64,000 nucleotides of DNA, taken from the NCBI GenBank assembly GCA_963789005.1, contig CAWBIZ010000008.1, forward strand, positions 15,643 to 79,642. The letters are read 5' to 3'. Positions 53,726 to 62,682 of the stretch are shown here, piece after piece (positions within the stretch are counted from its first letter, which is position 1; each line of letters begins with the position of its first letter). Below the pieces are notes generated by a model. The model made no database searches, was not told where the DNA came from, and was given only the letters and a program-made list of their open reading frames with translations. A program made the position numbers and the translations under genes. This DNA comes from an uncultured Solirubrobacteraceae bacterium. Its GTDB lineage: Bacteria > Actinomycetota > Thermoleophilia > Solirubrobacterales > Solirubrobacteraceae.

Positions 53726-55720
53726 TCACGGATGCGGGGTCGGCCAGGCGCGCGAGCCCGGCACGTCACGCTGCTCGCGCGCGCGCCGCTGGAGCCAGGC
53801 GGTCAGCTCCCCTGCCGGCATCGGACGGGCGAGCAGGTGTCCCTGGGCCTCGTCGCAGCCCCACTCGGCCAGCGACCGTCCGGTCTCCTCGTCCTCGACG
53901 CCCTCGGCGACGACGCCCATCCCGAGCCGGCGGCCGAGATCCACCAGCGAGCGGGCGATCGCGGCGTCGCGCGGGTCCTCCGACAGCCGCATCACGAACC
54001 CGCGGTCGATCTTGAGCGTGTCGAGCTTGAGCCGCTTGAGGTGGGAGATTGCGGCGTGGCCGGCCCCGAAGTCGTCGAGCGCGGTGCGCGCGCCGATCGC
54101 GCGCAAGCCGTCGAGCACGTCGGCGGTGCGCTCGACGTCGGTCATCACGACGTCCTCGGACACCTCGAGCACGAGCTGCTCGGCCGGGTAGTCGCGCAGC
54201 TCCAGCAGCCGCTCGACCTCCGACGGCAGGCCGAGGTCCAGCAGGTCGGCCGGCCCGAGGTTGACGGCGACCGTGAGGTCGAACCCGCGCCGGCGGCGCT
54301 CCCCGATCTCGTCGAGCGCGCGGTCGAGCACGAAGGTGGTGAGCGCACGGGTGAGGCCGCTCTGCTCGACGAGCGGCAGGAAGTGCGCCGGGCCGAGCAG
54401 CCCGCGGTCCGGGTGGTCCCAGCGCACCAGCGCCTCGACCCCCGTGACCACCCCCGTGCGCAGGTCCGCCTTCGGCTGGTAGTGCAGGACGAGCTGGCCG
54501 GCCCGCAGCGCGCCGTGCAGCTCGCCGATCAGCAGCAGCCGGTCGCGGCTGTGGCGGTCGCGGGAGGCGAGGTAGACCTCGTGGCCGGTGCGCATCCGCT
54601 TGGCCTCGTACATCGCCACGTCGGCGCGCTGGAGCAGGCCGAGCGCGTCGCGGGAGTGCTCGGGGAAGAGCGCGATGCCGATGCTCGCGTCCACGTGCAG
54701 GCGGATCCCGCCGACGCCGAACGACTGCTCGAGCGCGGCCCGCAACCGCAGGCCGGCGGCGCTGGCCGTGGCCTCGTCGCCGGGCGAGAGCACGACCGCG
54801 AACTCGTCGCCCCCGAGCCGCGCGAGCGTGTCCTGCTCGCGCAGGATCTGGGACAGGCGGGGGCCGATCTGGCGCAGCACCTCGTCGCCGGCGGAGTGGC
54901 CGAGGGTGTCGTTGAGCTCCTTGAAGCCGTCGAGGTCGACCAGCAGGAGCGCGAGCTGGCCGTCGCGGGCCGCGGCGGACTCGATCGCCGCGCCGAGCCG
55001 ATCGATGAGGTGACGCCGGTTGCCGAGGCCGGTCAGGTCGTCGGTGATCGCCTGCCGGTGGCTCTCGCGCAGCCGATCGGTCACGGTCAGGCCGGCGCGC
55101 GCCATGCCGGCCAGGACGGTCGCGATGGCGAGCGCGACGGCCGCCGTGTCGAGGTCGGTGAACTGGCCGACGCCGAGCAGTGCGAGCGCCGCCGAGGCCG
55201 ACAGCAGGATCGCGCCCAGGACGATGCGGCTGAACTCGGGTCCGGGGCCCGCCTGCGGCTCTCGCAGCCAGCCCGCGCCGGCGAGCCCGAAGGCGGCCAG
55301 CGGCGCGATCGCCGGTCCGGCGGCCAGGCCCCCAAGGCCCGCCAGCGCCACCGGCAGCGCCCAGCCGGGACGCCAGCGACTGAGCGCCAACGCGCCGACT
55401 GCGCCGCCGGCGGCCACGGCGGGCGCCGCGCCGCCACCCAGCACCACCGTCAGCGCCGCGGCTGCGGCTCCGCCCATCGCCGCGTCGAGCCACGAGAGCA
55501 GCGTGACCGCCGGGATGCGGTCGACGACCAGCAGCGCCGCGCCGGCCGCGCCCAGTCCGCAGGCGACGATCAGCCCATCCTCGAAGAGCGCGGCCAGCAG
55601 CGCGGCGGCGAAGGCCGCGCACACCGCCCAGTGGCCCCGCGCGAGCGCGGCTGCGGCGCACGCCAAGGCACCCCCTAGCAGCACCACCCCGCTGGCGACG
55701 TCGACGAGCACCGAGCCCAT
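53726..55720 (-). CDS. Integral-membrane GGDEF-EAL c-di-GMP turnover protein
   Basis: About 200-aa multi-TM N-terminus, then RLGGDEFAVVL, EALVRW and DDFGAG. Confidence 0.88.
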   Translation of the reverse strand: MGSVLVDVASGVVLLGGALACAAAALARGHWAVCAAFAAALLAALFEDGLIVACGLGAAGAALLVVDRIPAVTLLSWLDAAMGGAAAAALTVVLGGGAAPAVAAGGAVGALALSRWRPGWALPVALAGLGGLAAGPAIAPLAAFGLAGAGWLREPQAGPGPEFSRIVLGAILLSASAALALLGVGQFTDLDTAAVALAIATVLAGMARAGLTVTDRLRESHRQAITDDLTGLGNRRHLIDRLGAAIESAAARDGQLALLLVDLDGFKELNDTLGHSAGDEVLRQIGPRLSQILREQDTLARLGGDEFAVVLSPGDEATASAAGLRLRAALEQSFGVGGIRLHVDASIGIALFPEHSRDALGLLQRADVAMYEAKRMRTGHEVYLASRDRHSRDRLLLIGELHGALRAGQLVLHYQPKADLRTGVVTGVEALVRWDHPDRGLLGPAHFLPLVEQSGLTRALTTFVLDRALDEIGERRRRGFDLTVAVNLGPADLLDLGLPSEVERLLELRDYPAEQLVLEVSEDVVMTDVERTADVLDGLRAIGARTALDDFGAGHAAISHLKRLKLDTLKIDRGFVMRLSEDPRDAAIARSLVDLGRRLGMGVVAEGVEDEETGRSLAEWGCDEAQGHLLARPMPAGELTAWLQRRAREQRDVPGSRAWPTPHP

Positions 55721-55769
55721 CGTGCCGGAAAGTGCGGGGGAGTACCATCCGGCTCAAGGAGCTGAGCCA

Positions 55770-56231
55770 TTGACCGGGCTGACCGTTGCGTTGCTGGTGA
55801 CCGGCGCCTCGCTGCTGGTCGCCGAGGCGCACTTGGCTTCGTACGGCCTGCTCGGCATCGCCGGTGTGCTCGCGCTGGCCACCGGTGGCGTGCTCGCCGT
55901 CGAGGCCGCGGGTGGCAGCGTGCTCGTGGGCCTTGCGCTCGTGCTGCCGGTCGCGGTGCTGCTGGCCGCGCTCGTGGCGATCGCGGGCCGCAAGGCGCTG
56001 GCCGCGAGCCGGCGCCGGCCGGTCAACGGGCTCGTCGGCCGCGTCGGCGTCGTCCGCCACAGCGTCGAGCCGGTCGGCGACGTGCTCGTCGCCGGCGAGC
56101 TCTGGCGAGCCCGCTGCTCGTGGGACGACGGCGAGCCGCCGCCTCGCGAGGGGGAGCACGTCGTCGTCGAACGCGTGAACGGGCTGACGCTGGCGGTCCG
56201 CCGCGCCGAGGAATGGGAGTTGATGTCATGA
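55770..56231 (+). CDS. NfeD-family membrane protein
   Basis: TTG start at 55770, preceded by AAGGAG. Two or three TM segments are followed by the OB-fold tail [27 protein letters not shown]. Confidence 0.8.
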
Positions 56232-57067
56232 CCGCCGTCACGATCGCGCTGATCCTCGTCGGGACGTTCCTGGCCGCGGCGGTCACGCTGGCGGCCTCCT
56301 CGATCCGGATCCTGCGCGAGTACGAGCGCGCCGTCGTGTTCCGGCTCGGCCGGCTGCTGGGGGAGAAGGGCCCGGGGCTGATCCTCCTGATCCCCGGCGT
56401 CGACCGCATGGTGCGGGTCGACCTTCGCACGGTCACGCTGGCGATCCCGCCGCAGAACCTGATCACGAGCGACAACGTGCCGGCCAAGGTCAACGCCGTC
56501 TGCTACTTCCGCGTGATCGACGCGTCGCGCTCGGTGGTCGACGTCGAGCGCTTCCTGGTGGCCACTTCCCAGATCGCCCAGACGACGCTGCGCTCAGTGC
56601 TCGGCAAGGCCGACCTCGACACGCTGCTGTCCGAGCGCGAGCAGCTCAACGAGGCGCTCCAGCACATCATCGACCAGCACACCGACCCGTGGGGGATCAA
56701 GGTCACGACGGTCGAGATCAAGGACGTCGAGATCCCGACCGCGATGCAGCACGCGATGGCGCTCGGCGCCCAGGCCGAGCGCGAGCGGCGGGCGAAGATC
56801 ATCCACGCCGAGGGCGAGTTCCAGGCCTCCAAGCGGCTGCGCGACGCCGCCGACGTGATCGCCGGCAACCCGGCGGCGCTGCAGCTGCGCTACCTGCAGA
56901 CGCTGACCGAGATCGGGGCGACCCACAACTCCACGGTCGTCTTCCCGCTGCCGATCGACGTCGTCAAGCCGTTCGTCGACGCCGCGGCGGCGCTCCAGCA
57001 GCAGCAGCCGGCGGAGGAGCCGCAGCAGGCCGTCGAGGGCAACGGCCAGGCGACGCTGCCTGCCTAG
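56228..57067 (+). CDS. SPFH/band-7 (stomatin-like) protein
   Basis: N-terminal TM, then [14 protein letters not shown]...LIPGVDRM...D...P. Its ATG overlaps the nfeD stop as ATGA. Confidence 0.9.
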
Positions 57068-59175
57068 CAGGCGCCCGTGTAGCGCACCGCCACCACGCAC
57101 GGCCGCTCGACCGGGCGCCCGCGGGCGATCGACCAGGCGAGGCGGATGTACTGCGCGTGCGTCCAGGCCAGCGGGGTCGCCGACCGGGTGCCTTCGCCCG
57201 CGGGCTCGCTGGTCGGCGGCCGGCCGTCCCAGACCTGCTCGGGCAGCATCAGGCCGTCGTTGGCGGTGCGCGCGATCGTGCGCAGGTGCGGCATCGCGCT
57301 GCGGCCCGCGATCAGCGCGTACTCGCCGCGCTCGCCCGTGAGCAGCGGCCACAGGCGGCCGAACGTCTGCCGCTCGGCGGTCGGGAAGATGTTCCAGTCG
57401 GCGCCCGTCGCGGTCTCGCCGTAGCCGTCGTAGGAGAAGCGGTACCAGACCGGGCCGTTCGGGGTCCGCACGCGCAGCTGGTCGTCGCCGACCGCGAGCG
57501 AGTTGAGGATCACCGGGTCGTCGTGGCGCTTGGCGCCGAACAGCACCAGCCCGAGGAAGGAGTTGTCGACGATCTCGCGCTCATCGACCGGGCGCGGGAA
57601 GTTGTCGCCGAGCGAGTACATCGTGCCGTCGTTCGGGTTGCCGTCCTTGGTCACGCGCACGTAGTACGGCTTCGGCGAGTACGGCCCGTTGGTCGTCGCC
57701 GTCCATGACTCGACCTGGCGCTGCCAGGCATCCGCGGTGGCCTCGTATGTCACCGCCCGTGCGGTGTCGCCGTTGGCGCGCGCGATCTCGGCGGCGCACA
57801 CCAGCCCGGCGATCTCGGCGGCGATCGTGTTCGGCGACCAGCCGCTCTGGTTCTCCCACCGCTCCTGACCGGAGTCCGGCCCGTTCGCGACCACGTAGTC
57901 GGCGGCGAGGCGGACCTGCTCCCAGTCGGCCGCGCCGTGGCGGCCGAGCCACCAGGCGAGCACGATCGGGAGCGAGACCTGGTCCATCTGCTCGGTCATC
58001 CAGCGCGGCTCGCCGTCGACGTGCGTGTTCTGCCAGAACGAGCCGTCGGGCTTCTGCACGCGCCACAGGAAGTCGAGCAACCGCCCTGCGGCAGGCCGGT
58101 CGCCCGCCACCGCCTGGGCGGTCGCGACGTGGTAGAGGTCGCGCGGCCAGACGAGGTGATAGGGCCCGGAGTCGGGACGAGGAGGGTTCTCGAGCGCGAG
58201 CGTGCGCCACACCCACGGCATGCTCGGCGAGGCGATCGAGGCGCCGCGGTTGGCCTTGTCCTCGAGCGCGGCGAGCACCATCATCGACTGCCGGTACAGG
58301 CGGCGCATGTGCCGGTTGCCGCGCACCGGCTTCGGCGGCCGCCGCACCGAGTCCAAATAGCGCTCCCAGCCGCGCGCGTAGCGCCGCGCAGCCGGCTCGA
58401 AGCGACCGCCGACTGTCGCCACGCGCGCGGCGCGCGCGTCGGCCCCGAAGCCGATCGCCAGCGTCAGGTCACGCCGGCGAACGCCGTCGAGCCGCGTCTG
58501 CGCCGCCTGCACGACGTTGCCCGGGGCGGTGGCGTCGTACTGCGCGTCGAGGTCGCCGTCCGCGAGGTCGGCGCGCGGGTCGCTGACCGAGCCGGCGTAG
58601 CCGCTGGTCGTGCGCCGCAGCCGCGGCTCAGCGCGGATCGCCGAGGCGACCGTGTCGTCGAACGCCACCAGATCCGACTGTCGCGAGAACCCGAGGTCGT
58701 CGTCGCCGTCGTTGCCGGGCGCCGGATCGGCGACCACGAACAGCTTCAGCGGTCGGCCGGAGAACGAGCTGAAACGCACGCGCGCGAGCACGGTGGCGCG
58801 GCGCGGATCGGTGATCCAGGTTGCCTCGAGCCGCCAGCCGGCCCCGCGCGTGACCTGGCGGAAGGTGAGCGAGCCGGGGACGGGCTGGACGCTCCCGGTC
58901 CCGGCGAGCTGCCGCCGGCCGTCGGTGACGACGAACTTCAGGTCGCGCAGGCTCGGAGTCGAGAGGTCGGGGTAGTAGACCTCGCTGAGCTCGCTCTGCC
59001 GGAGCGTGAACCACACCGGGCTGCCGGGCTGCATCGCCCCGCCGAAGCCCTGCTTGTCAGCGGGCGCCCACGTGTGCTTCTCGCCGGGGGCGCCGGGAGC
59101 GGGCGGCTTGGCCGCAGCGGCCGCCGGCCAGAAGGCGAGCAGCAGCGCAGCGGCGACGAGGGCGCGAAGCGGCAC
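57064..59175 (-). CDS. Secreted glycoside hydrolase family 15-like (glucoamylase/glucodextranase-type) protein
   Basis: Signal peptide [23 protein letters not shown] beta-rich N-terminal domain is followed by an alpha-barrel region with LVWPRDLYH and [20 protein letters not shown]. Confidence 0.75.
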
Positions 59176-59178
59176 GGG

Positions 59179-62100
59179 TCAGGTCTGCCCGGTGGGCGCC
59201 GGCTGGAAACCGGTCGACTCCGGTACCGCCGCGAGCGCATCGCGCGCCGCGGCGGCCGTCTCCCAGCGACGGTCCGGCTCGCGGTCGAGCATGCGTGCGA
59301 TCGCGTCACGCAGCTCGGGCGACACGATCGTGGAGAGCGCGTCCGCGTCGACGTCCTCCATCACCGCCTGCTGCAGCACCTCCATCAGCGTGCCCGGTCG
59401 CCGGGCCGGCCGACCGACCAGCATCTCCCACAGCAGCATGCCGACCGTGAAGACGTCGGCGCGGCCGTCGGCGCCGCTGCCGGTGATGAGCTCCGGCGCG
59501 AGGTACGCCGGGGTGCCGACCACCGGCGCGCCCGAGGCCGTGATCGCGTTGTCGTCGTCGTCGCGGCCGCGCTTGGCGAGCCCGATGTCGACGATCACCG
59601 GGTCCAGCTTCCCGCTGACCATGATGCTCGAGGGCTTGAGATCGAGCCGGATGACGTCGCGCTCGCTCAGGTACTGCAGCGCGTCGAGCAGCGCCGACGC
59701 GATGCGCACCGCGTCGCGCGGCTCGAGCCGGACCTGCGCCAGCAGCTGCTTGAGCGACGTGCCGGTGATGCGCTCCATCACGATGCCCAGGCGGCCGTCG
59801 TCCTCGGCGAACACGTCGAGCGTCGGGACGATGTTGGGGTGCTCGAGCGCGGTTGCGATCTTGGCCTTGCGCATGAAGCGCGCGCGCATCGTCTCGTCAC
59901 CCGCCAACGCCGGAACGTCGAGCATCTTGATCGCGACCTCGCGGCCGCGCTGGCGCTCGCGGGCGATGTACACGCGCCCCATGCCGCCGCGGTCGATCTC
60001 CTGCTCGAGCTCGTAGCGGCCATCGCCGACGACCTCGCCGACCCCGGTCGAGCCCCACGGCTGGGCGGCGATCTCGCCCCCGCCGTCGGCCAGCAGGTCG
60101 GCCCGCTCCTGCACGTTGTCGCGCGCGAAGGCGCGCAGCTTGCCCGCGACGTCGTCGGCCAGCTTGTAGACCGCGACCTGCGCGTCGGGCACGTCGCCGA
60201 ACTGGCGCTCGTCGGCGCCGAGCCCGCGCACGAGCACGAGGTACTCGTGCGTGACGAGATGCTCGAGCAGCGCCTCGACCTTCTCGGGCACGAGTACGAG
60301 CAGCGGGTCGAGCGCGACCTCCTCCTCGTCGGTCGCGTCGCTCGTGCTGATCACGTCCTGCGCGGTGAAGGTGCGTCCGAGCGTGCGCAGGATCCAGTCG
60401 GTCACGTAGTAGGCGCCGATCCGCCAGCGGTCCTCGTCGATCGCGACGGAGAACGCGTGGCCGTCGGCGGCATGGCCGGTGAACTCGGCGAGCACGCGCT
60501 CGACGCCGGCGTAGAACTCGATCCGCGCGCGGTCGGGCGTGCGCAGCGTCAGGTACGGGCGCCCGTCGTCCCATTCCACGAGCGAGTTGAGCTCCATCAG
60601 CAGCAGGCGCGGGACGCCGCGGGCCTTGAAGCGCAGGTAGTCGGGCAGCGAGCCGAGCTCGGCGCGCTCTCGCCAGCCCGGCGCCATCGTGGTCTCGAGC
60701 AGGCGGTCGGTGGCCTGCCACACGCACGGGACGTAGAGCTGCCAGCCGAAGACGCTGTCGTAGACGCTGTTGCCGCGGTGGCTGTGGCGCATCGAGAGGT
60801 CGTGCAGGTCCGGGCCGGCGATGAACACGAAGTGCACGCCCCACGTCGTGAGCAGGTTCTTGAGCCCGCTCACGAGGTCGTCGAGGCACTTGCGACCCGC
60901 GTCCGACGTCGTCAGCTTGTCGAGCTCGTCGACGACCACGACGATCCTGCCGCGCCAGTGCTCCCCCGGCTGCCCACGCCGACGGAAGAGCGACACGATG
61001 CGCAGGAAGTCGTGCTCGACGTCCGCCGCCGAGTAGGCCAGGAACGACGCCTCGAGCGCGAGCGAGTCGGTCGTCTTGCTGGCCATGTCGAGCCGCGGCC
61101 CGAGCGCCTCGAGCAGCGGCATGCCGATCCCGAGCCCGCGCGAGCGCTCGGAGCCCGAGCCGCGGGTCTGCGTGAAGGAGAGCGACGTGCGGCGGTAGGC
61201 GAGGATCAGCTGGCGCTGGATGTCGTCGGGCAGCCGGTCGAGCACGCCGCCGTCGCTGAGCGCCTCGAACAGCCGCCGGATGACCTCGAACAGCAGCTCC
61301 TCGGTCGTCTTCGGGCGCGCCACGTTGAGGAACACGGGCACGACGGCGTCCTCGCCCATCTCGGTGCGCAGGTGCTCGAGCGCGTTGAGGATCACGGTCG
61401 TCTTGCCGACGCCGCGGAAGCCCGTCAGCAGGAACGCGCCCCCGTTCGAGTGCAGGATGCGCTCGACCAGCGCGAGCACGACCTCCTCGTTGCCGAGCAG
61501 CGGGAGCGCGTCCTCCTCCTGCGCGTGGTGGACGTAGCGGAACGACGCGTTGACCGGCGCCCGGACGGCCGTGGCGCGGCGGCGCGCGGCGGCCAGGCGG
61601 TCGGTGCTGGGCTTGCGACCGTTCGTCGCCGGAGCCGGCAGCGCAGGGGGCAGCGGCGGAGAAGGGGCCGGCTGCCGCCGGCCGAGCCTCAGGCGCGGGA
61701 AGCGCCACTGCCACCGCCGCCGCGCGGCGGGAGCGGGCGGCGGCGGCTCGTAGCCGCTCCCGTACACCGTGACACCGGCGGGCGGCGGCGGCGCGGCCGT
61801 CGGTGGTGGCGGCGGGGCCGCGACCGGCATCGGGGCGACGACCGAGGGCGCCGGGACGGGAGCGTCGCCGCGCAGCGCGTGCGCGAACTCGCCGGCCGTC
61901 GCGTAGCGGGCGCCGGGGTCCTTGGCCATCGCGCGCGCGACGACCGCGTCGTACGGGGCGAGCTCCGGTGCCACCTGCGACGGCAGCGGCACCGGGTCGT
62001 TGATGTGCGCGAACAGCGTGCCGGCCTGCGAGTCGCGCGGGAACGGGACCTGCCCCGTGAGCGCCACGTAGAGCAGGCAGCCGAGCGCGTAGATGTCCGC

Positions 62101-62682
62101 GCGCGCGTCGCCGGCGCCCCCCTGGATCCGCTCGGGCGCCGTGTAGTCGAGCGACCCCGCGAAGTCGCCGACCTCGGTGACCGGCGCGCCGCCGAGGCGC
62201 TCGTCGCGCGCGATCGCCAGCCCGAAGTCGGTCACGTAGGCGTGATCGCCGGCGGCGACGAGCACGTTGCCGGGCTTGACGTCGCGGTGCACGAGCCCGA
62301 GCGCATGCGCGGCGTCGAGGGCGGCCGCGACCTGGTCGAGCAGCCGCGCGGCCCGCGGCGCCGCGAGCGGGATCAGCACGTCCAGGCTCGGCCCGTCGAT
62401 CAGCTGCATCGCGAGGAACAGGCGCCCGCCGCTCTCTCCCGCGCGGTACACGGGCACGACGTGGGCGTGGCCGATCGCCGCCGCCAGCCGTGACTCGCGC
62501 TGGAACCGCGCCCGGAACTGCGCGTCGTCCGCGAGCATCGGCGCCATCACCTTCAGCGCCACGTGGCGCCCGAGCGCGACCTCGGTGGCGGCGTAGACGA
62601 CGCCCATGCCACCGCGCCCGATCACGCGGTCGATGCGATAGCCATCGAACTCCGAGCCCGGATCGAGGCCTGCGGCGCTCAT
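59179..62682 (-). CDS. Ser/Thr protein kinase - P-loop NTPase - degenerate second kinase domain fusion (1167 aa)
   Basis: Kinase 1 (aa 14-268): GRGGMGVVY, VALK, HRDVKPGN, DFG, APE. ATPase: Walker A GFRGVGKTT (aa 421-429) and Walker B IVVVVDELD (aa 580-588). Kinase 2 (aa 889-1148): DRGGMGRVY, VAIK, IRLDLKPSS, DIG, APE. Confidence 0.85.
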   Translation of the reverse strand: MSAAGLDPGSEFDGYRIDRVIGRGGMGVVYAATEVALGRHVALKVMAPMLADDAQFRARFQRESRLAAAIGHAHVVPVYRAGESGGRLFLAMQLIDGPSLDVLIPLAAPRAARLLDQVAAALDAAHALGLVHRDVKPGNVLVAAGDHAYVTDFGLAIARDERLGGAPVTEVGDFAGSLDYTAPERIQGGAGDARADIYALGCLLYVALTGQVPFPRDSQAGTLFAHINDPVPLPSQVAPELAPYDAVVARAMAKDPGARYATAGEFAHALRGDAPVPAPSVVAPMPVAAPPPPPTAAPPPPAGVTVYGSGYEPPPPAPAARRRWQWRFPRLRLGRRQPAPSPPLPPALPAPATNGRKPSTDRLAAARRRATAVRAPVNASFRYVHHAQEEDALPLLGNEEVVLALVERILHSNGGAFLLTGFRGVGKTTVILNALEHLRTEMGEDAVVPVFLNVARPKTTEELLFEVIRRLFEALSDGGVLDRLPDDIQRQLILAYRRTSLSFTQTRGSGSERSRGLGIGMPLLEALGPRLDMASKTTDSLALEASFLAYSAADVEHDFLRIVSLFRRRGQPGEHWRGRIVVVVDELDKLTTSDAGRKCLDDLVSGLKNLLTTWGVHFVFIAGPDLHDLSMRHSHRGNSVYDSVFGWQLYVPCVWQATDRLLETTMAPGWRERAELGSLPDYLRFKARGVPRLLLMELNSLVEWDDGRPYLTLRTPDRARIEFYAGVERVLAEFTGHAADGHAFSVAIDEDRWRIGAYYVTDWILRTLGRTFTAQDVISTSDATDEEEVALDPLLVLVPEKVEALLEHLVTHEYLVLVRGLGADERQFGDVPDAQVAVYKLADDVAGKLRAFARDNVQERADLLADGGGEIAAQPWGSTGVGEVVGDGRYELEQEIDRGGMGRVYIARERQRGREVAIKMLDVPALAGDETMRARFMRKAKIATALEHPNIVPTLDVFAEDDGRLGIVMERITGTSLKQLLAQVRLEPRDAVRIASALLDALQYLSERDVIRLDLKPSSIMVSGKLDPVIVDIGLAKRGRDDDDNAITASGAPVVGTPAYLAPELITGSGADGRADVFTVGMLLWEMLVGRPARRPGTLMEVLQQAVMEDVDADALSTIVSPELRDAIARMLDREPDRRWETAAAARDALAAVPESTGFQPAPTGQT

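Follow-up and report, generated by a model that had tools for sequence, protein, structure and literature searches.

The locus studied here raises the question of whether a single open reading frame that appears to encode two protein kinase domains, with a P-loop NTPase between them, specifies a genuine protein, and how such a protein might work. The window, by which we mean the whole stretch of 64,000 nucleotides that was analysed, carries this frame on its reverse strand (Table 1). Our study identifies its product as a real and conserved protein made up of an intact Ser/Thr kinase, the ORC/Cdc6-like ATPase to which it is tethered and, after this, a degenerate kinase; it is a soluble, stand-alone signalling protein, and its family is discrete and almost wholly actinobacterial. 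An earlier note on this DNA had described such an arrangement, and a check of the sequence placed all the motifs that it named at their given positions in the 1167-aa frame.

Architecture and integrity of the reading frame

Table 1. Features of the kinase-ATPase-kinase reading frame and their positions in the window.
Feature	Residues (aa)	Position in window	Strand	Basis
Whole frame: kinase, AAA+/winged helix, degenerate kinase	1167 in all	59179..62682	-	ATG start
N-terminal PknB-like RD Ser/Thr kinase	15-270	61873..62640	-	Pfam Pkinase, PDB, Foldseek
Disordered Pro-rich linker	274-358	61609..61863	-	full-length AF2 pLDDT <50
Basic Trp-containing motif RRRWQWRFPRLRLGRR in linker	321-336	61675..61722	-	sequence position
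AAA+ ATPase core	372-655	60718..61569	-	AF2, Foldseek, sequence profile vs PDB
Walker A GFRGVGKTT	421-429	61396..61422	-	G421, G424, G426, K427 invariant (253/253)
Large helical insertion, strand 2 to Walker B strand	486-567	60982..61227	-	secondary structure, pLDDT
Walker B IVVVVDELD	580-588	60919..60945	-	D585, E586, D588 each 252/253
AAA+ lid and helical region	657-778	60349..60714	-	helices 657-665, 679-687, 691-701, 715-740, 747-765
Winged-helix-like domain	799-863	60094..60288	-	helix-strand-helix-strand-helix pattern
C-terminal non-RD Hanks kinase, degenerate ATP/Mg site	890-1145	59248..60015	-	Pfam Pkinase, pLDDT >90

The first kinase, the linker, the AAA+/lid/winged-helix region (aa 372-865 as a whole) and the second kinase follow one another in that order. 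Pfam recognized two Pkinase stretches (whole-protein E=9.4e-78), the best being the C-terminal one, which covers profile positions 1-257 of 263. AAA_22 passes its curated cut-off (37.7 versus 27 bits), while AAA_16 (31.9 versus 32.6) and KAP_NTPase (18.7 versus 20) lie slightly under theirs. The absence of transmembrane segments and of PASTA, FHA and TPR modules, proposed in the earlier note, was borne out: none of the three has a Pfam match in the protein, and no 19-residue segment of its 1167 residues has TM-like hydropathy, the maximum of 1.45 lying within folded domains. The full-chain AF2 model has a pTM of 0.72, a figure that is uninformative on domain docking.

It is important to consider whether the frame could be an artefact in which two or three genes were run together through a sequencing error, an indel, in a linker rich in GC and Pro. 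One 90%-identical relative (L001) gives this idea some ground, as its N-terminal kinase, basic linker motif and ATPase lie in three frames and its gene call (P0001, 870 aa) begins within the linker; however, L001 is the exception, and its frameshifts fall in homopolymer-rich sequence. A protein identical to that of the window (P0121) is encoded on two other contigs, its 90% cluster includes another 1167-aa and one 1160-aa member on further contigs, the architecture is continuous in more than 100 cluster representatives, and the relatives L003, L008 and L009 have intact, unbroken frames of 1166-1181 aa. In comparisons with these three, dN/dS stays below 1 across all segments; in the linker it is 0.27-0.45, at an amino acid conservation of 59-71%, and the basic motif there is conserved as protein sequence. 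A fusion artefact, which the earlier note had named among the things that would overturn its reading, is thus in practice refuted, and we regard its probability as negligible.

The linker has a median length of 84 aa and mostly 20-30% Pro among the 124 relatives that carry an N-terminal kinase. Its basic patch, already pointed out from the sequence, corresponds to RRRWQWRFPRLRLGRR, which is kept as [RK]n-W-x-[FW]-P-R-[LFI]-R in P0122-P0138 and occurs as variants in P0148-P0153; the motif is restricted to the clade of the window protein and is missing from more distant three-domain proteins. The AF2 model (pLDDT about 35-40) predicts neither a fold nor docking for it.

Downstream, the frame adjoins an ORF at 57064-59175 on the same strand that encodes a Glucodextran_N + GH15 protein with an N-terminus resembling a signal peptide; only 3 nt separate the stop codon of the kinase frame from the first possible start of this ORF, in keeping with the spacing and the secreted GH15-like product given before. 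Among the loci examined, which include nine from Streptomyces, there is no conserved operon partner; defence genes adjoin the family gene in none of them, and no association with replication or segregation genes was found in the gene contexts examined. The absence of a conserved neighbour means that a single polypeptide holds the logic of the system.

The N-terminal kinase and the ATPase module

The N-terminal domain has all the motifs of a Hanks kinase: GRGGMGVVY (aa 22-30), VALK (aa 41-44), RESR (aa 62-65), HRDVKPGN (aa 132-139), DFG (aa 152-154) and APE (aa 182-184), which supply the key residues K44, E63, H132-R133-D134, N139, D152-F153-G154 and A182-P183-E184, together with the activation-loop residue T169. 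Its top PDB matches are PknE (E=5.6e-66) and then PknB (about 6e-50), and its Foldseek TM-score against PknB is 0.89. K44, E63, HRD, N139, DFG and APE are invariant wherever aligned (105-110 of 110 relatives of this domain, the rest being alignment gaps), and T169 is present in 90 of the 110. Its dN/dS against close relatives is 0.40-0.52. The domain is the canonical, fully intact kinase that the motifs had suggested.

The ATPase region was modelled with AF2 over 516 residues (pLDDT 87.3, pTM 0.87). The strand that opens its core, F-R-Y-V-H (aa 381-385), is conserved, and the best Foldseek matches of the model are Orc1/Cdc6, ORC4 and ORC1 (E 2e-7 to 1e-4), the archaeal and eukaryotic proteins of this group being followed by NB-ARC NLRs, which are also significant matches. 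A sequence profile searched against PDB ranks ORC4 first (E=1.5e-4), then RFC, TnsC and Cdc6. The identity to Orc1/Cdc6/ORC is 11-16%, and the TM-scores of 0.3-0.47 are low because of domain rearrangements; the AAA+, lid and winged helix of Orc1/Cdc6, as well as NB-ARC chains, align over 480-560 columns. The P-loop NTPase with intact Walker motifs described before therefore stands, and the segment of about 190 aa left unassigned at that time is now accounted for as AAA+ lid, helical segment and winged helix. For aa 380-880, for which several assignments had been suggested, the ORC/Cdc6-type AAA+ is the closest, with AAA_16 and KAP_NTPase staying below the Pfam cut-offs. By the same Foldseek and profile results, the type nearest to this ATPase is not that of MalT/PknK.

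The ATPase motifs are never lost in the family (key residues in 251-253 of 253 sequences), and the dN/dS of this module is 0.30-0.35 against close relatives. Directly after Walker B, K589 is found in 252/253, and a candidate Arg finger, R636, in 216/253. The large insertion contains R498-T499-S500, with R498 and T499 in all 253 sequences, as well as E556 (252/253) and D558 (250/253); its aa 510-547 form a disordered Ser/Thr-rich loop. From the topology, the insertion seems equivalent in position to the initiator-specific motif of ORC/Cdc6/DnaA. The lid has the motif K-A-R-G-V-P-R (aa 686-692; R688 and G689 in 252/253, R692 in 251/253), a candidate sensor-2 or GxP motif by its likeness to the 'GDAR' of Cdc6 and the 'GLPL' of NB-ARC proteins.

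The family and its degenerate C-terminal kinase

The family is small, with 258 clusters (50% identity, E≤1e-30), and its distribution is patchy. Its constant part is the ORC/Cdc6-like ATPase with lid and winged helix, fused to a kinase of non-RD type (R-[LIV]-D) at the C-terminus; the accessories to this core, rather than the reverse, are the N-terminal kinase and an FHA domain placed C-terminally. There are 151 ATPase-kinase proteins (N-K), 28 N-K-FHA, at least 114 representatives of the kinase-ATPase-kinase type (K-N-K), found down to 36% identity, and 4 K-N-K-FHA. The window protein sits in a Solirubrobacterales subclade with an added N-terminal PknB-type RD kinase. FHA domains bind pThr, and their presence in sister clades argues that phospho-dependent interactions are part of the family's working. 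As to whether the three-domain architecture is common and already characterised, a literature search found no description of it or of its family, but it is fairly frequent in soil metagenomes, where its sole annotation is 'protein kinase'.

The C-terminal domain has a kinase fold, as had been claimed, and its substitutions are exactly those listed from the sequence; the family comparison now shows them to be departures from an intact ancestral state. Its motifs are VAIK (aa 916-919), RFMRKAK (aa 935-941), LDLKPSS (aa 1013-1019), DIG (aa 1032-1034) and APE (aa 1062-1064). The alphaC Glu is K939, HRD has become R1012-L1013-D1014, the catalytic-loop Asn is S1019 and DFG is D1032-I-G, so that the K-E-D-N-D positions read K-K-D-S-D; the domain is non-RD because R-[LIV]-D replaces HRD. 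The G loop is D897-x-G899-x-x-G902, with Asp in place of the first Gly (I-D-R-G-G-M-G), a change that the earlier note does not contain. K919, D1014, D1032, the activation-loop T1048 and A1062-P-E1064 are retained. In its strict definition a pseudokinase has lost the VAIK-Lys, the HRD-Asp or the DFG-Asp, and the domain stays outside this class because K919, D1014 and D1032 are all kept; 'pseudokinase or atypical kinase', the wording used before, is the right level of claim for such a sequence. Degenerate actinobacterial Hanks folds are also known from the bSTK Atlas (families ActPs1-3, CP1, DYD, DLHK and GLW), but its pseudokinase families are defined by the loss of any one of those three residues, whereas in the window domain the losses concern other positions, namely the alphaC Glu, one G-loop Gly and the Asn of the catalytic loop; the main text of the Atlas contains no ATPase-linked or two-kinase architecture and no mention of AAA, ATPase or tandem (bioRxiv 2025.01.12.632604).

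In proteins bearing an N-terminal kinase, the C-terminal kinase has in many cases lost some of its ATP/Mg-binding residues. K-E-D-N-D is intact in 137/149 C-terminal kinases of proteins without the N-terminal kinase versus 35/104 with it, and the G-loop Gly to Asp change occurs in 7/149 versus 46/104, respectively; seven of the 12 exceptions without the N-terminal kinase fall in the degenerate clade and resemble N-terminally truncated three-domain genes. On a quick NJ tree, most of this link comes from a single clade of 67 leaves, with some minor events besides, and its Fisher's p of 2e-23 overstates independence. Gain or loss of the N-terminal kinase takes about 18 parsimony steps, and therefore the order of gain and then decay is not proven. 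Five singletons aside, no family protein is without a fully canonical kinase. The C-terminal kinase is not decaying, as it is under purifying selection, with a dN/dS of 0.46-0.64 against close relatives, the highest of the folded parts. With several ATP/Mg-binding residues gone, the domain looks like a kinase on its way to becoming a probable pseudokinase, and the window protein is a natural example of this transition.

Catalysis by this domain may still be possible, judging by its retained residues. CASK and WNK are atypical kinases with Mg independence or alternative geometry, and the domain could likewise be atypical but competent, so that a single ATPase scaffold would carry two functional kinases, each with substrates of its own. 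Besides the retained residues and the purifying selection, this would agree with the presence in three-domain proteins of the catalytic Asp (106/106) and the beta3 Lys (101/106), and with the fully canonical state of about a third of these domains (the 35/104 above). Nevertheless, we consider it unlikely: four ATP/Mg-contacting positions are altered together in the clade of the window protein (G-loop Asp, alphaC Lys, Ser and DIG), and the DFG Asp itself is replaced by E, N, K or G in other three-domain lineages (25/106). Such losses are rare where the C-terminal kinase is the sole kinase, which argues that its catalysis has become dispensable.

A possible mechanism and comparable systems

We tentatively favour, at somewhat short of even chances, a joint reading in which an AAA+ switch governs the activity of the N-terminal kinase, with the C-terminal domain as a regulator, docking or sensor module. 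By analogy with ORC/Cdc6 and STAND proteins, ATP binding and hydrolysis would drive a conformational or oligomeric switch, which R636 and the candidate sensor-2 residue R692 may serve, judging from motif position and analogy. The assembled state would bring the tethered N-terminal kinases together for trans-autophosphorylation on the conserved Thr169, and these would then phosphorylate targets, among which the Ser/Thr-rich loop or T1048 may be included. The C-terminal domain, once perhaps the ancestral catalytic output, would now be mainly a non-catalytic or weakly catalytic module.

The layout of an effector, an NTPase with winged helix and a variable C-terminal module is that of STAND/NLR proteins (ZAR1, Sr35, NRC1, Apaf-1), and the ATPase has NB-ARC NLRs and Apaf-1 among its structural matches. 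The protein might accordingly be an immune or conflict sensor with a NOD-type switch, in which the degenerate kinase acts as decoy or sensor for a phage or competitor factor, e.g. an effector hitting host kinases, and the N-terminal kinase is a cell-shutdown effector; if true, it would mirror plant tandem-kinase/NLR immunity in a prokaryote. ZAR1-RKS1 and the wheat tandem kinase proteins that work with NLRs are cases of kinase- or pseudokinase-assisted plant immunity. Plant tandem kinase proteins pair an active and a degenerate kinase as the window protein does, but have no NTPase between the two and use a separate NLR partner (PMC6170490; bioRxiv 2024.08.30.610287). The single gene without fixed neighbourhood, even across the nine Streptomyces loci, the small, patchy family and the fast-evolving C-terminal domain would suit a sensor of this kind, as would the report by Kaur et al. 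(PMC7159879) that conflict systems of actinobacteria use catalytically disrupted kinases for effector domains. Also in favour, PglW of type-2 BREX/Pgl in actinomycetes unites nearly the same parts in one large protein, although in a different order: NERD nuclease, pseudokinase, active Ser/Thr kinase, three wHTH and an inactive, ORC/Cdc6-like STAND (PMC12839542); its Walker motifs, however, are degenerate, whereas those of the window family are invariant, and the window protein has neither a NERD domain nor BREX genes nearby. Its NCBIfam PglW score (99.6 versus a cut-off of 990) and its MAD6 score are far under the cut-offs, the PADLOC matches (PD-T4-6, mad6, MkoA) span generic kinase domains only, and viral counterparts are limited to generic AAA+ proteins. 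No examined locus has adjoining defence genes, the selection on the C-terminal domain is purifying and not diversifying, and the LRR, WD40 or TPR sensor of STAND/NLR proteins is missing. This analysis gives no evidence of an immune role, which we consider rather improbable.

Archaeal Orc1/Cdc6 and eukaryotic ORC/Cdc6 share with the window protein the AAA+ core, lid and winged helix, a helical insertion that precedes the Walker B strand, as well as conserved Arg residues at the putative Arg-finger and sensor-2 positions. The AAA+/winged-helix region might therefore bind specific DNA, with the kinases phosphorylating chromosome proteins linked to replication, segregation or transcription, since Orc1/Cdc6 and ORC subunits in DNA-bound form (2v1u, 2qby, 7tjj) head its structural matches and the insertion appears to lie where the DNA-contacting initiator-specific motif sits. 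We find this quite doubtful: STAND/NB-ARC proteins, whose winged helices are not DNA-binding, match nearly as well, the TM-scores are low, and the family ATPase, unlike Orc1/Cdc6, is fused to kinases and has no link to replication or segregation genes in the contexts examined. Its insertion is also much larger than that of ORC/Cdc6, with the family-specific invariant R-T-S and E-x-D.

An AAA+ switch controlling a kinase, the reading that we favour, has a parallel in PknK of M. tuberculosis and related Hanks kinase/AAA_16 proteins. These are soluble, as is the window protein, and have an N-terminal PknB-type kinase followed by an NTPase of the AAA_16/AAA_22 neighbourhood, and the presumed logic in both is kinase control through a nucleotide switch. 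However, PknK ends in MalT-type helical repeats, whereas the window protein has a lid, a winged helix and a second kinase without TPR/MalT; its ATPase matches ORC/Cdc6 best, not the MalT-like type of PknK, and in the family this ATPase has its conserved partner in the C-terminal rather than the N-terminal kinase. Degenerate and active kinase domains are joined in one chain in JAK (JH2-JH1), and a nucleotide switch and a kinase in LRRK2 (Roc-COR-kinase), where the NTPase is a Ras-like GTPase; homology of the window protein to both is limited to the kinase fold, the domain order and, in LRRK2, the NTPase class being different.

Gene model and continuity of the reading frame

All of the motifs quoted in the earlier note were found, with matching coordinates, in the protein encoded by the window gene. 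Pfam returned two full-length Pkinase matches (aa ~15-270 and 890-1145) and, between them, an AAA_22 match that passes its curated cut-off; AAA_16 and KAP_NTPase fall slightly short of theirs. PASTA, FHA and TPR domains were not detected in the window protein by Pfam, and no 19-residue window has transmembrane-like hydropathy, in agreement with what had been read from the sequence. The description of the whole protein as an active-looking kinase, a P-loop NTPase and a pseudokinase or atypical kinase was essentially right, and the finding is real.

Features of the window, of related loci and of the ATPase module
Feature	Position	Strand	Observation
Family gene	59179..62682	minus	ATG start, 1167 aa, 70-81% GC region
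Glucodextran_N + GH15 hydrolase gene	57064-59175	minus	signal-peptide-like N-terminus
Alpha/beta hydrolase gene	upstream of family gene	divergent	
GGDEF-EAL protein gene	53726-55720	minus	just downstream of family and GH15 genes
NfeD/Band7 (SPFH) gene pair	55020-56231 and 56120-57067	plus	
Antisense ORF	57937-62493	plus	1518 aa
HAD-like / helicase genes, relative's locus L003	11416-12231 and 13365-15641		
HAD-like / helicase genes, relative's locus L004	16829-17650 and 13453-15885		
HAD-like / helicase genes, relative's locus L002	2545-3333		
Winged helix (AF2 model)	aa 799-863		end of ATPase module
Helical insertion, 80 residues	between strand 2 and Walker B strand		holds disordered Ser/Thr-rich loop aa 510-547
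Walker A	K427		253/253 family members
Walker B	D585 and E586		252/253 family members each
Arg-Gly pair	R688 and G689		252/253 family members each
Candidate sensor 2	R692		251/253 family members
Candidate Arg finger	R636		216/253 family members

The earlier note had considered that the ORF might be a fusion artefact of two genes, and we rejected this explanation because the three-domain ORF is continuous in many relatives. A full-length search recovered the identical 1167-aa protein (P0121) on two contigs of up to 178 kb, and its 90% cluster holds a second 1167-aa member and a 1160-aa member on other contigs. The same search yielded about 100 more cluster representatives, 1100-1200 aa long and likewise built of the three modules, at identities down to 36%, from sources that include Solirubrobacteraceae, Pseudonocardia and Actinomycetospora. 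The linker, where a junction would lie, is intact in the unbroken ORFs of three relatives' loci (L008, 1166 aa; L009, 1167 aa; L003, 1181 aa), with 59-71% protein identity and a dN/dS of 0.27-0.45 relative to the window. The sole discordant copy is that of L001, a 90%-identical metagenomic contig that begins within the N-terminal kinase. In L001:1-480, which matches window positions 61600-62100, no two of the C-lobe of this kinase, the basic linker motif and the ATPase share a reading frame; these frameshifts are probably indel errors in the homopolymer-rich, Pro- and GC-rich linker sequence, which looks like an assembly error, and because of them the gene call (P0001) is only 870 aa long. It is important to consider this copy as a warning that many ATPase-kinase database entries near the window clade are three-domain genes that have been truncated. 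Two overlapping ORFs divide the family gene between them in an 'uncultured Actinomycetota' MAG (L034:5129-9521), and the translated match region has 12 stops, so that this copy is a pseudogene or the product of an assembly frameshift.

Domain assignments

When compared with the PDB as a single sequence, the middle region gave no significant match, and its sequence profile reached ORC4 only weakly in first place (E=1.5e-4), followed by RFC, TnsC and Cdc6, so the assignment needed a comparison of folds. The AF2 model of aa 370-885, built from a 143-sequence alignment, was confident (pLDDT 87.3, pTM 0.87). In a Foldseek search of the PDB, its top 26 matches were all Orc1/Cdc6, ORC or Cdc6 chains (E 2e-7 to 1e-5), the leading structures being archaeal Orc1/Cdc6 (1w5t, 2v1u, 2qby and 1fnn) and eukaryotic ORC4, ORC1 and Cdc6; the NB-ARC proteins NRC1, Sr35 and ZAR1 and also Apaf-1 rank after these chains. 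A viral structure library returned generic AAA+ proteins, KAP and RFC only. The middle module is accordingly modelled as an AAA+ ATPase with an ORC/Cdc6 (initiator) type fold, comprising an alpha/beta core, a helical lid and a C-terminal winged helix. This prediction supplies the domain assignment that had been left open for aa 380-880, in favour of the ORC/Cdc6 type and not the KAP family, and the structure and profile matches indicate that the formerly unassigned stretch of about 190 aa corresponds to the lid, a helical segment and the winged helix.

Residue conservation in the ATPase was counted over 253 family members, and the Walker A and B motifs noticed at the outset are certain and near-invariant. 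R636 and R692 lie in the modelled secondary-structure elements expected for the Arg finger and sensor 2, for which they are candidates, and the stretch weighed for sensor 1 (G623-P624-D625) is ambiguous. The helical insertion contains the family-specific invariant residues R498-T499, E556 and D558 and is placed topologically where the initiator-specific motif of ORC/Cdc6/DnaA lies, which suggests that the two may be equivalent.

The criterion that we used for an active Hanks kinase comprises GxGxxG, the VAIK-Lys, the alphaC-Glu, the HRD-Asp, the catalytic-loop Asn, the DFG-Asp and APE. The N-terminal domain has this complete motif set and is, judged by its sequence, a Hanks-type Ser/Thr kinase of the RD type that is predicted to be active. 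Its closest solved relatives are PknE, PknB and PknA of M. tuberculosis (TM 0.89 to PknB), the first two being its top PDB matches, and K44, E63, H-R-D, N139, D-F-G and A-P-E are invariant wherever aligned (105-110 of 110 relatives), all of which bears out the description of domain 1 as canonical. The activation-loop Thr, T169, is present in 90 of the 110. The linker that follows (aa 274-358), including its basic motif, is predicted to be disordered in the full-length AF2 model; in N-kinase-bearing relatives the linkers have a median of 84 aa and are mostly 20-30% Pro. The basic motif itself, RRRWQWRFPRLRL, is conserved in the window subclade only (P0122-P0138), with variants in P0148-P0153. 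With the full-length model as query, Foldseek matched single kinase domains and returned no multi-domain template.

The C-terminal domain also has a Hanks-type kinase fold: the Pkinase match spans profile positions 1-257 of 263, sequence matches in the PDB include ULK3, PAK6 and CaMKI (E ~1e-21 to 1e-23), and the AF2 model has a pLDDT >90 here. The possibility raised beforehand that domain 2 might not be kinase-fold can therefore be set aside.

Family architectures and degeneration of the C-terminal kinase

A single-sequence search of 1.84 billion representatives with the ATPase module retrieved a discrete family of 258 clusters at E≤1e-30, or 418 when the limit is E≤1e-10. Among the 331 proteins fetched for the architecture tally, 151 are ATPase-kinase proteins of ~800-870 aa, 114 are kinase-ATPase-kinase, 28 are ATPase-kinase-FHA and four are kinase-ATPase-kinase-FHA, the FHA domains having been checked with Pfam; the proteins outside these four layouts are fragments. 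From this tally, the ATPase, the winged helix and the C-terminal kinase form the constant core, and the N-terminal kinase and FHA are accessories. The family is small, conserved, actinobacterial and uncharacterised, and public annotation of its members says 'protein kinase' and no more. The sources of the ATPase-kinase form, among the matches listed, are Streptomyces, Amycolatopsis, Micromonospora, Actinomadura, Nonomuraea, Sphaerisporangium, Frankia and Actinospica. The sole good match outside Actinomycetota, among the matches listed, is a 41%-identical member on a 1.35-Mb contig whose MAG carries the label 'Deferribacteres bacterium' (L022:7001-8545), an outlier that could reflect horizontal transfer, mislabelling or a binning error.

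In a quick NJ tree of the ATPase region, presence of the N-terminal kinase requires ~18 parsimony changes; several of these are truncated gene calls, and multiple gains or losses are likely. The ATPase-kinase-FHA proteins include a sister clade (P0291, P0293, P0298, P0303, P0320 and P0323) in which the C-terminal kinase is always fully canonical, and an N-terminal kinase occurs together with FHA in P0145, P0147 and P0217.

To score the C-terminal kinase we used five positions (beta3 Lys, alphaC Glu, catalytic Asp, catalytic-loop Asn and DFG Asp). The K-E-D-N-D signature is intact in 35 and degenerate in 69 of the proteins with an N-terminal kinase, whereas only 12 of the proteins without one are degenerate. 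Seven of these 12 fall inside the degenerate clade and resemble N-terminally truncated three-domain genes, and four of the seven begin in the C-lobe of the N-terminal kinase or in the linker. The association between an N-terminal kinase and a degenerate C-terminal kinase is real, but the Fisher's p of 2e-23 overstates it because the independent events are few: most degenerate C-terminal kinases belong to one 67-leaf clade that includes the window protein, and smaller independent events exist. Degenerate three-domain signatures include K-K-D-S-D, K-K-D-G-D, K-E-D-S-N and K-E-D-N-E, among others. Of the proteins with the N-terminal kinase, 46/104 have Asp for Gly in the G-loop, versus 7/149 of those without it. 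With the exception of five singletons, at least one canonical kinase is kept in every protein.

The window protein has the signature K-K-D-S-D together with this G-loop change, an anomaly of domain 2 that the earlier note overlooked (I-D897-R-G-G-M-G). Its HRD is replaced by R1012-L1013-D1014; across the family the residue before the catalytic Asp is mainly L, I, V, F or C, and the one before that is Arg in 236/253, so that R-[LIV]-D in place of H-R-D makes this a non-RD kinase. Whether it is a pseudokinase depends on the definition. Under the strict one, the loss of at least one of VAIK-Lys, HRD-Asp and DFG-Asp, it is not, since K919, D1014 and D1032 are all present; that definition does apply to some relatives, the DFG-Asp being E, N, K or G in 25 of 106 three-domain proteins. 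Under the broad one, the loss of other canonical ATP/Mg-binding residues (G-loop glycines, alphaC-Glu, catalytic-loop Asn), its sequence qualifies it as a pseudokinase or atypical kinase, with D897 for the first G-loop Gly, K939 for the alphaC-Glu and S1019 for the Asn. The original wording, 'pseudokinase or atypical kinase', therefore stands in the broad sense and not in the sense of triad loss. These changes are departures from the intact state of the family, since 137 of the 149 proteins in which this is the only kinase are intact.

The degeneration is clade-specific and under continued purifying selection. The domain is not decaying, as judged by the confident fold, the retained K919, D1014, D1032, activation-loop T1048 and APE, and a dN/dS against close relatives of 0.46-0.64, compared with 0.40-0.52 for the N-terminal kinase and 0.30-0.35 for the ATPase. 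Within the family, the passage from active kinase to probable pseudokinase can be followed as a clean evolutionary series, graded from a single active kinase through kinase plus FHA and two intact kinases to an intact plus a degenerate kinase. This natural series allows a direct test of how a kinase gives up catalysis for a regulatory role as a pseudokinase when the protein has a second kinase at its disposal, and it also bears on how an AAA+ nucleotide switch might gate kinase output; genetics are feasible because culturable Streptomyces carry the simpler form.

Known systems, possible mechanisms and genomic context

Fusions of kinases to STAND or AAA+ switches (PknK, PglW) are known, as are kinase-pseudokinase tandems (JAK, plant tandem kinases), and the window protein is a multi-domain Hanks kinase coupled to an AAA+/STAND-like switch. 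PknK/MalT-like proteins combine an N-terminal kinase, AAA_16 and a MalT-type C-terminal helical-repeat regulatory region. PknK and the window protein share the kinase-plus-P-loop idea, but PknK has a MalT-type tail and another ATPase subtype; in the window protein AAA_16 scores 31.9 vs 32.6, TPR, MalT and LuxR gave no matches and the C-terminus has a kinase fold, which places it outside that class. STAND NTPases in the sense of Leipe et al. 2004 reportedly consist of an effector, a NOD (NTPase, helical domain, wHTH) and a C-terminal repeat sensor (TPR/WD40/LRR). The window protein resembles them in its NOD-like module, its N-terminal effector-like kinase and its NB-ARC/Apaf-1 fold matches; with no repeat sensor found, nSTAND6 at 11.9 vs 27.7 and NB-ARC unmatched in Pfam, it is not a STAND NTPase in that sense, but it could work in a STAND-like manner nonetheless. 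KAP family P-loop NTPases carry transmembrane helices inserted in the P-loop domain, and the window protein, which has no transmembrane-like segment and a KAP score of 18.7 against a cut-off of 20, does not belong to them.

PglW of type-2 BREX has nearly the same parts (pseudokinase, kinase, wHTH and ORC/Cdc6-like STAND) and differs in domain order, an inactive NTPase, a NERD nuclease and a BREX operon setting (PMC12839542). We rejected membership in this group because the NCBIfam model NF033442 scored 99.6 against a cut-off of 990, through the kinase domains only (best stretch aa 882-1153), and because the neighbours of the window gene include no BREX set. PD-T4-6, MADS MAD6 and Mokosh MkoA were likewise rejected, their strong PADLOC matches being confined to aa 10-274 or 885-1155 and MAD6 scoring 225 against an NCBIfam cut-off of 460; partner genes of multi-gene defence kinase systems were absent from the loci examined. 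The bSTK Atlas describes 42 bacterial kinase families, seven of them pseudokinase families recognised by the absence of an intact K/D/D triad, and its main text does not mention an ATPase-linked or two-kinase architecture (bioRxiv 2025.01.12.632604). Catalytically disrupted kinases have been reported as effectors of actinobacterial vWA-MoxR conflict systems (Kaur et al., PMC7159879), a different context from that of the window protein. In the searchable literature we found no description of a protein with a kinase, an ORC/Cdc6-like ATPase and a degenerate kinase, as the first reading had suspected, nor of the wider ATPase plus non-RD-kinase family, which occurs in Streptomyces, Actinomadura, Nonomuraea, Amycolatopsis, Frankia and Solirubrobacterales.

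The mechanism that we tentatively favour, at somewhat under an even chance, is a composite one. The AAA+/winged-helix module would be a switch that changes its conformation or oligomerises in response to nucleotide, much like ORC/Cdc6 and STAND proteins; the RD kinase on its flexible tether would be activated through proximity-driven trans-autophosphorylation of T169; and the C-terminal domain, which would have provided the catalytic output in the ancestor, would no longer serve catalysis and would have been kept for regulation, docking or sensing. The C-terminal FHA (phosphothreonine-binding) domains of sister clades hint at phospho-dependent self-interaction, through intra- or inter-molecular pThr contacts, as part of the family mechanism. 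If the family is not immune-related, its members would be one-component Ser/Thr signalling switches of a new class, present in actinomycetes that produce antibiotics. A genuinely dual-active kinase, with which the preserved Lys/Asp/Asp triad would agree and the substituted G-loop, alphaC and catalytic-loop residues would not, seems unlikely.

An NLR-like immune sensor with a kinase-derived decoy appears more improbable than dual activity. Plant tandem kinase proteins act with separate NLRs (PMC6170490; bioRxiv 2024.08.30.610287). A prokaryotic surveillance system of this sort, which we regard as quite improbable in its full form, would use the C-terminal decoy to sense a factor with which a phage or competitor targets host kinases, releasing the ORC/Cdc6-like ATPase to oligomerise and the N-terminal kinase to fire as a growth-arrest effector. 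If true, the protein would be the bacterial equivalent of plant immunity by tandem kinases and NLRs, with all parts in one molecule, the ATPase-kinase and ATPase-kinase-FHA relatives of Streptomyces and its allies would be ancestral versions, and the family would connect bacterial and plant kinase-based immunity; the NB-ARC matches fit such a role, for which neighbours, PADLOC and NCBIfam provided no evidence. Least probable of all is a DNA-bound ORC-like regulator, which the fold and winged helix would suit; a replication context was absent from every locus examined.

The context survey comprised gene lists for seven relatives' loci and an all-against-all clustering of flank ORFs at 32 loci. 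There is no conserved operon partner: besides the gene and its antisense shadow ORFs, no neighbour family occurs in more than 4 of the 32 loci, which points to a self-contained single-gene system. In the window, the GH15-like gene does start 3 nt past the family stop codon, as originally noted, which makes co-transcription of the pair possible; this adjacency is missing from the more distantly related loci L003, L004 and L002, where the downstream gene is a different one. A promoter/terminator scan of 56.9-63.2 kb gave 0 matches, which says little at 74% GC. GGDEF-EAL and NfeD/Band7, whose order is the same in L001, are ordinary membrane and c-di-GMP signalling genes. No defence genes were found among the window neighbours (GH15, abhydrolase, Band7/NfeD, GGDEF-EAL), and there is no second Hanks kinase elsewhere in the 64-kb window.

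In Solirubrobacterales relatives only, a HAD-like protein (Hydrolase_3, faint; 261-273 aa) recurs within a few kb of the gene, and so does a DEAD/Helicase_C/WHD_HRQ1/MZB helicase. The L003 and L004 copies of the HAD-like protein are 63% identical, a 265-aa convergent neighbour in Streptomyces is unrelated to it, and both genes are absent from the 64-kb window, so this is probably local synteny with no functional link. At L011:1580-6897 (Actinomadura fulvescens) and L015:45-3573, two or three further ORFs directly upstream fall into the same cluster as the family gene, most likely because their kinase domains are alike; among the loci examined, this local kinase cluster of Actinomadura is limited to these two. 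The long antisense ORF of the window spans the family and GH15 genes, and like shadow ORFs, which cluster by BLAST, lie opposite the family gene in all relatives; they are a by-product of high GC and not genes.
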